A stretch of DNA of 1,133 bases from Escherichia coli. Its GTDB lineage: Bacteria; Pseudomonadota; Gammaproteobacteria; Enterobacterales; Enterobacteriaceae. The notes under the pieces were generated by a model, which ran no database searches, was not told the origin of the DNA, and worked only from the letters and a program-made list of their open reading frames with translations. Below, one piece after another: positions 1 to 1,133 of the stretch (positions within the stretch are counted from its first letter, which is position 1; every line of letters starts with the position of its first letter). The DNA lies in the NCBI RefSeq assembly GCF_003334405.1, contig NZ_QOWM01000047.1, one strand, 5' to 3'. The position numbers and the translations under genes were made by a program.

Positions 1-1133
1 AAAAACTGGATCGACAAAGAAGAATATCCGCAATCCGCAGCCATCGACCTGCGTTGCGTAAATATGGTTGCCGATCTGTGGCATGCGCCTGCGCCGAAAA
101 ATGGTCAGGCCGTTGGCACCAACACCATTGGTTCTTCCGAGGCCTGTATGCTCGGCGGGATGGCGATGAAATGGCGTTGGCGCAAGCGTATGGAAGCTGC
201 AGGCAAACCAACGGATAAACCAAACCTGGTGTGCGGTCCGGTACAAATCTGCTGGCATAAATTCGCCCGCTACTGGGATGTGGAGCTGCGTGAGATCCCT
301 ATGCGCCCCGGTCAGTTGTTTATGGACCCGAAACGCATGATTGAAGCCTGTGACGAAAACACCATCGGCGTGGTGCCGACTTTCGGCGTGACCTACACCG
401 GTAACTATGAGTTCCCACAACCGCTGCACGATGCGCTGGATAAATTCCAGGCCGACACCGGTATCGACATCGACATGCACATCGACGCTGCCAGCGGTGG
501 CTTCCTGGCACCGTTCGTCGCCCCGGATATCGTCTGGGACTTCCGCCTGCCGCGTGTGAAATCGATCAGTGCTTCAGGCCATAAATTCGGTCTGGCTCCG
601 CTGGGCTGCGGCTGGGTTATCTGGCGTGACGAAGAAGCGCTGCCGCAGGAACTGGTGTTCAACGTTGACTACCTGGGTGGTCAAATTGGTACTTTTGCCA
701 TCAACTTCTCCCGCCCGGCGGGTCAGGTAATTGCACAGTACTATGAATTCCTGCGCCTCGGTCGTGAAGGCTATACCAAAGTACAGAACGCCTCTTACCA
801 GGTTGCCGCTTATCTGGCGGATGAAATCGCCAAACTGGGGCCGTATGAGTTCATCTGTACGGGTCGCCCGGACGAAGGCATCCCGGCGGTTTGCTTCAAA
901 CTGAAAGATGGTGAAGATCCGGGATACACCCTGTACGACCTCTCTGAACGTCTGCGTCTGCGCGGCTGGCAGGTTCCGGCCTTCACTCTCGGCGGTGAAG
1001 CCACCGACATCGTGGTGATGCGCATTATGTGTCGTCGCGGCTTCGAAATGGACTTTGCTGAACTGTTGCTGGAAGACTACAAAGCCTCCCTGAAATATCT
1101 CAGCGATCACCCGAAACTGCAGGGTATTGCCCA
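1..1133 (+). CDS. gadB: Glutamate decarboxylase (PLP-dependent, group II decarboxylase family), internal fragment truncated at both ends; about residues 82-458 of the 466-aa GadA/GadB protein
   Basis: Frame 1 on the + strand is open across the whole window (377 codons, no stops). The translation matches the E. coli GadA/GadB sequence as I recall it, including the SxSGHK PLP-lysine motif (codons at 568-585), the IDIDMHID segment (463-486) and the C-terminal region [17 protein letters not shown] (1081-1131). Codon usage (CTG, CCG, GGT, CGT, AAA rich) is typical of E. coli. GadA and GadB differ almost only in the N-terminal residues, which are outside this window, so the gadB symbol is a guess between two paralogs. 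Confidence 0.96.
568..585 (+). other. PLP-binding active-site motif S-A-S-G-H-K; the Schiff-base lysine codon AAA is at 583-585 (Lys276 in GadB numbering)
   Basis: Direct translation of 568-585 gives SASGHK. An S-x-x-x-H-K motif carrying the pyridoxal-phosphate lysine is characteristic of group II PLP decarboxylases. The residue number follows from window codon 1 being Lys82. Confidence 0.85.

Follow-up and report, generated by a model that had tools for sequence, protein, structure and literature searches.

A 1133-nt glutamate decarboxylase record of Escherichia coli very probably represents a collapsed gadA/gadB repeat contig

Glutamate decarboxylase is a pyridoxal-phosphate enzyme, and the decarboxylation of glutamate consumes a proton in acid resistance. 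Escherichia coli carries two genes for it, gadA and gadB, and the DNA analyzed here raises the question of which of the two it comes from. The window, by which we mean the whole stretch of DNA analyzed, is 1133 bases long and makes up the entire record. It is an internal fragment of a glutamate decarboxylase coding sequence (positions 1..1133, + strand) that covers codons 82-458 of gadA/gadB and 2 nt of codon 459, without a start codon, a stop codon or any flanking sequence. Frame 1 of the + strand runs without interruption from the first base of the window to the last.

We next considered what the window encodes. The 377-residue translation scored 597.9 bits against the NCBIfam glutamate decarboxylase model TIGR01788, aligning with profile positions 67-430 of 431; this is an equivalog model, and its curated cutoff (380.4 bits) was exceeded. 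PF00282 is recorded for the product with this translation. The motif SGHKFG was located in the translation, and its lysine, encoded by the AAA codon at positions 583..585 (+ strand), is Lys276, which we take to be the PLP-binding lysine known from the GadA and GadB structures. Both structures, GadA (PDB 1xey) and GadB (PDB 1pmm), match the translation over residues 82-458 with an equal score of 896.9 bits; these residues are identical to those of 1xey, and the same residues are identical in K-12 GadB. An Rfam scan of both strands of the window gave no match. The longest antisense open reading frame (574-1110, minus strand, 178 aa) had no match among the NCBIfam families. It most likely arises as a by-product of coding on the sense strand, and none of the other-frame reading frames listed for the window amounts to more than such a by-product.

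To place the fragment, we compared it with both loci of K-12 MG1655, ccp-gadA-gadX and pqqL-gadB-gadC. A previous reading, made from the sequence alone, had described a pair of nearly identical genes at different loci, one (gadA) next to gadX and the other (gadB) next to gadC, and this is the arrangement seen in MG1655. Nucleotides 244-1376 of K-12 gadA (b3517), a neighbor of gadX within the acid fitness island, are 100% identical to the window. K-12 gadB (b1493), which forms an operon with gadC, is identical at 1130 of 1133 nt and encodes the same residues 82-458; the three mismatches are all synonymous, and the sequence-only reading was right to expect only differences of this kind. They fall at window positions 399 (gene nt 642, Thr214), 456 (gene nt 699, Asp233) and 936 (gene nt 1179, Tyr393), all on the + strand, and at each of them the window and K-12 gadA have C while K-12 gadB has T. 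Across the window span, the two reference genes consequently share exact stretches of only 398, 56, 479 and 197 nt. Over their full length they differ at 31 of 1401 nt, of which 26 lie in nt 6-243, three within the window and two beyond it (nt 1377 and 1395). The divergence is thus 26/243 at the 5' end versus 3/1133 in the core, nt 244-1376 (binomial P = 1.1e-15, Fisher P = 1.8e-17). The five amino-acid differences between K-12 GadA and GadB, at residues 3, 5, 6, 9 and 22, are all upstream of the window, as had been anticipated for the N terminus. Judged against the K-12 reference alone, the window carries the gadA allele at 3/3 of the in-window sites.

Do these three sites identify the paralog in other strains? 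We sampled eight gadA and eight gadB loci across the identity range, assigned each by the genes on either side of it, and included the K-12 pair as well, giving nine loci of each paralog. In nt 1-243 there were 15 fixed differences between gadA and gadB, all of them in nt 6-93, and five shared polymorphisms. In the span of the window, nt 244-1376, no paralog-specific base was fixed among the nine gadA and nine gadB loci, and 38 polymorphisms were shared between the paralogs. The last stretch, nt 1377-1401, had no fixed difference and one shared polymorphism. The window span contained 75 variable sites among the 18 loci, 70 of them synonymous. Positions 399 and 456 were polymorphic at both loci among strains, and position 936 was C in four of the nine gadB loci. 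Read together, positions 399, 456 and 936 were C-C-C in eight of nine gadA loci and T-T-C in the remaining one; the nine gadB loci comprised T-T-T (two), T-T-C (one), C-C-T (three) and C-C-C (three). We therefore rejected the three sites as paralog markers, given the absence of fixed differences in the window and the presence of the exact window at true gadB loci, described below. Aligning both reference loci and counting paralog-specific SNPs, the check proposed in the earlier reading, gave three of three matches to K-12 gadA, none of them fixed across the sampled loci. With no fixed differences in nine plus nine loci, and with the exact window at true pqqL-gadB-gadC loci, we found no clear locus-specific differences, and the claim that the paralog is unresolvable within the window holds.

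The same sample speaks to how the two cores are related. Mean pairwise differences in the core were 20.0 between gadA loci, 21.1 between gadB loci and 20.5 between gadA and gadB of different strains, while gadA and gadB of one genome differed at 3 and 10 sites in the two genome pairs sampled. Among the sampled loci, core sequences clustered with strain lineage and not with locus. A homogenized core next to a protected 5' end is what concerted evolution by gene conversion typically leaves behind, and we infer RecA-type ectopic recombination as the homogenizing process. That the gad duplication is homogenized by gene conversion is already known biology: PMC10362622 and bioRxiv 10.1101/188599 cite Bergholz et al. 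2007 (Mol Biol Evol 24:2323) for gene conversion between gadA and gadB. As far as it is described in those citing works, the concerted evolution found there has the same signature as our sample, namely a 5' end that has diverged and a homogenized core with shared polymorphisms and grouping by lineage. The suggestion that these genes are candidates for gene conversion thus agrees both with the sampled loci and with published work.

The boundary of the homogenized tract at nt 244 is common but not universal. At nt 213 and 234-243, gadA of NZ_CP134717.1 (RIVM_C036204) has the bases typical of gadB, so that the homogenized tract extends farther 5' in that lineage. Another sampled locus, gadA of NZ_CP061101.1 (1EC213; locus 620-2020), contains an internal stop (E397*) and is annotated as a pseudogene. 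At 399/456 it has the gadB-type T,T, and its nearest sampled core is that of an O26:H11 gadB, at two differences.

We then asked where the exact window is placed in complete genomes. All 5426 of 5426 complete E. coli genomes matched it, with a median of two places per genome; some genomes had up to ten places instead of the usual two, and six places were on plasmids. In a plain search with the window, 24 of 60 evenly spaced rows were exact, which corresponds to ~2,118-2,209 records among the 5,426 complete genomes. The best place in these 24 rows was labeled gadA in 20 and generic 'gad' in four, and the exact window was located at gadA in ~40% of the 5,426 genomes.

The exact window also occurs at gadB. 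When the window was joined to the gadB-specific downstream flank and used as the query, 36 records among the 5,426 genomes matched at 100%, all annotated as gadB and gadC. With the gadB-specific 5' end placed ahead of the window, at least 60 records were exact, including E. coli W, LY180 and several K-12 derivatives; spread sampling found one mismatch in the record near rank 93, which sets an upper bound of ~92. In other words, gadB is identical to the window at 1133/1133 nt in ~60-92 other genome records. Three of the 36 records found with the downstream flank were read base by base and have pqqL upstream, gadC downstream and the exact window inside. They are gadB-type at 26/26 of the 5' sites and at both 3' sites, and gadA-type at 399/456/936. 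The reverse chimera, a gadB-type core with gadA flank, matched one record exactly and many with one or two mismatches. Had the window been cut from one locus only, these placements would favor gadA over gadB by ~25-35 to 1 (~96-97%).

Two records met in this search deserve mention. In NZ_CP135658.1 (TUM10008), one gad copy (2480903-2482812) is interrupted by IS1A, so that the window aligns in two pieces; the split copy is annotated as 'gad', 'IS1-like element' and 'pyridoxal-dependent decarboxylase'. NZ_AP027522.1 (LR-31), a record of 3,722 bp, contains the end of pqqL and the 5' end of gadB and stops 50 nt into the window. Its end, within a 'complete' assembly, appears to be a further assembly break within the repeat.

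The ends of the record are informative in themselves. The left end, position 1, is the first base past gene nt 243, which is T in gadA and C in gadB in 17 of the 18 sampled loci. The right end, position 1133, is the last base ahead of gene nt 1377, which is G in gadA and A in K-12-type gadB. Only one of the 269 possible 1133-nt windows within the gene has both ends adjoining sites at which the paralogs differ. The MG1655 subline CP097883 provides a genome in which precisely this segment is shared: its gadB has gadA-type bases at 399/456/936, there are 28 differences between its gadA and its gadB, and the longest stretch that the two share without a mismatch covers 1133 nt, from nt 244 to nt 1376, and equals the window at every base.

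If the window has the extent of the maximal repeat, then many public short-read assemblies should contain whole contigs of the same extent, and such recurring contigs were indeed found. The exact 377-aa translation occurs in 584 index blocks, and in 583 of the 584 the longest contig carrying it is shorter than 2 kb. Nine of the ten places listed are whole 1133-nt contigs, from NCBI draft genomes, Logan assemblies and ENA metagenome assemblies, and several of them are present in 10 or in at least 20 samples. These nine contigs, which come from different lineages, start and end at the same bases as the window. Each departs from it at 1-21 synonymous sites, so that none is identical to it at the nucleotide level. 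At positions 399/456/936, the public 1133-nt contigs read C-C-C, C-C-T, T-C-C or T-T-C. The tenth place is a 4.5-Mb scaffold, JBPYCA010000001.1, whose gadA locus holds an exact copy of the window with a 100-N gap on either side. The flanking contigs on the gadA side overlap this copy by exactly 77 nt on each side, and overlaps of this sort are typical of de Bruijn graph edges. The window itself upholds the proposal that such duplicates are candidates for assembly collapse: its length and ends are those of the maximal gadA/gadB repeat and of many public 1133-nt contigs.

Protein records give a similar picture. The exact protein is found on 174 contigs, under the NCBI name 'glutamate decarboxylase, partial', and the same protein cluster holds further partial products of 353-432 residues on contigs of 1.0-1.3 kb. 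E. coli and Shigella contribute many other 'glutamate decarboxylase, partial' products to the 90%-identity cluster; these have 207-456 residues and lie mostly on contigs of ~0.6-1.3 kb. Such partial products on short contigs suggest gad contigs that are collapsed or broken and end elsewhere.

Contig breaks at these genes have been described before. PMC3045373 names gadA and gadB in its list of repeats at which K-12 assemblies break into separate contigs, and Table 6 of that work gives a contig break at gadB of NCM3722 at 1568677-1569826, in old MG1655 coordinates. Assembly collapse at gadA/gadB is an already known technical consequence. Compared with the collapsed repeat contigs that short-read assemblies yield for tufA/tufB, gadA/gadB, rRNA operons and IS elements, the window has the length and the ends of a repeat edge; it does not differ from collapsed contigs at duplicated genes and is a textbook instance of them. 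With an assumed coordinate offset between MG1655 sequence versions, the NCM3722 break would start at about gene nt 244 (+/- 1 base), the same left boundary as that of the window.

Taken together, we infer that the window very probably originated as a collapsed gadA/gadB repeat contig, one sequence that stands for both paralogs. Our model suggests that gene conversion between the two distant loci would keep the gad cores (nt 244-1376) nearly or fully identical, while the first ~93-243 nt of gadA and gadB stay distinct. A short-read assembler working on a de Bruijn graph would then produce a single contig, running from the first shared base to the last shared base, because it cannot distinguish the two cores. 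For a contig of this origin, the question of which paralog it is has no answer from sequence. Three points speak against a collapse: the record length of 1133 could reflect some other windowing rule, none of the nine short public contigs has the exact nucleotides of the window, and the window matches gadA exactly in ~2,100-2,200 complete-genome records. The first and third would suit an excerpt from gadA, next to gadX, in a strain that is K-12-like or of phylogroup A/B1; the end positions would then be a coincidence or the product of a windowing rule. Such an excerpt would agree with the complete identity to MG1655 gadA, including all three K-12 gadA alleles, with the gadA labels among the 24 exact rows and with the C-C-C found at eight of nine sampled gadA loci. 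We nevertheless consider it unlikely, as both ends coincide to the base with the limits of the identical tract, just as they do in nine independent 1133-nt contigs, and the record has no flank at all and no site fixed between the loci. In contrast to gadA itself, the window has neither the 5' end specific to gadA (nt 6-93, with the 15 fixed differences) nor the ccp/gadX flank that would mark it as part of the gadA locus. The 5' end specific to gadB is likewise missing from it, as is the gadC flank. An excerpt from a gadB locus upstream of gadC, with its core converted to the gadA-type haplotype, is highly improbable: the exact window does exist at true gadB loci (36 records via the downstream flank and ~60-92 via the 5' end, three of them confirmed base by base in the pqqL-gadB-gadC context), but this placement is ~25-35 times rarer than that at gadA (60-92 versus ~2,100-2,200 records), and the end positions would be as unexplained as under an excerpt from gadA.

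A collapse could also have joined copies that were not identical. Here, the two copies would differ at a few sites, for example 399, 456 and 936, the bubbles would have been removed, and the C-C-C of the window would be an arbitrary consensus present at one locus or at neither. Bubble removal is established assembler behavior, and the K-12 reference copies differ at exactly these three positions inside the same boundaries. The varying combinations at the three sites in public 1133-nt contigs fit this possibility, and so do the J53 assemblies, with gadA T-T-C and gadB T-T-T in CP028702 versus gadB C-C-C in the J53 hybrid CP068706. On the other hand, genomes whose copies are identical over exactly nt 244-1376 are on record, so bubble removal is unnecessary to explain the window. 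We regard a merger of non-identical copies as possible but less likely than not; the window by itself fits truly identical copies and merged few-site variants equally well.

With the window read as a very probable collapsed contig, the consequences are mainly practical, and knowledge of the enzyme and of acid resistance is unchanged. Sequence alone does not tell whether a read, contig or variant call within gad nt 244-1376 belongs to gadA or to gadB. The three K-12 SNPs are unfit for telling the paralogs apart in other strains, and even in derivatives of K-12 they are unreliable. Expression analysis, mutation calling and typing of one particular locus have to draw on its first ~93 nt or on the genes that flank it, and contigs like the window should be labeled as a two-copy collapsed repeat, not as one gene.

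Finally, laboratory derivatives of K-12 vary at the three sites. The combination C-C-C at 399/456/936 was found at gadB of MG1655 sublines, C600, MT102 and a J53 hybrid. Conversely, gadA is T-T-C in J53, and in NCM3722, DH5a, TG1 and MG-phbCAB-3-5 it has zero or one mismatch to a gadB-type core. It is possible, although we hold it only tentatively, that these sites flip by real ectopic gene conversion, repeatedly and in both directions, on laboratory timescales and between loci 2 Mb apart. If the flips are real and not assembly or polishing errors, positions 399/456/936 would be a ready-made natural reporter of the conversion rate.

The two J53 assemblies, nominally of one laboratory strain, illustrate the difficulty. 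In NZ_CP028702.1, the longest stretch shared by gadA and gadB is 935 nt. In the hybrid J53-p1-pV-hybrid-1 (NZ_CP068706.1), gadB is C-C-C, and C,C at 399/456 is present at neither locus of NZ_CP028702.1. Subline differences, real conversion or polishing errors may account for this disagreement. We also considered whether a hybrid assembler had pasted one collapsed node into both loci. This was not supported for CP028702, in which the cores differ at nt 1179; it may have occurred in CP097883 and in other assemblies with gadB C-C-C.

The J53 chromosome also differs from that of MG1655 in the orientation of these loci. In NZ_CP028702.1, the regions at 1.98-2.03, 2.20-2.23 and 2.30-2.33 Mb carry fdnG, gadB, ydiK, yeaG and nudL in the MG1655 orientation, whereas gadA, at 0.216 Mb, lies in the orientation opposite to that of MG1655. 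This switch between the gadB side and gadA indicates a large inversion relative to MG1655, at whose ends copies of IS5 may lie.
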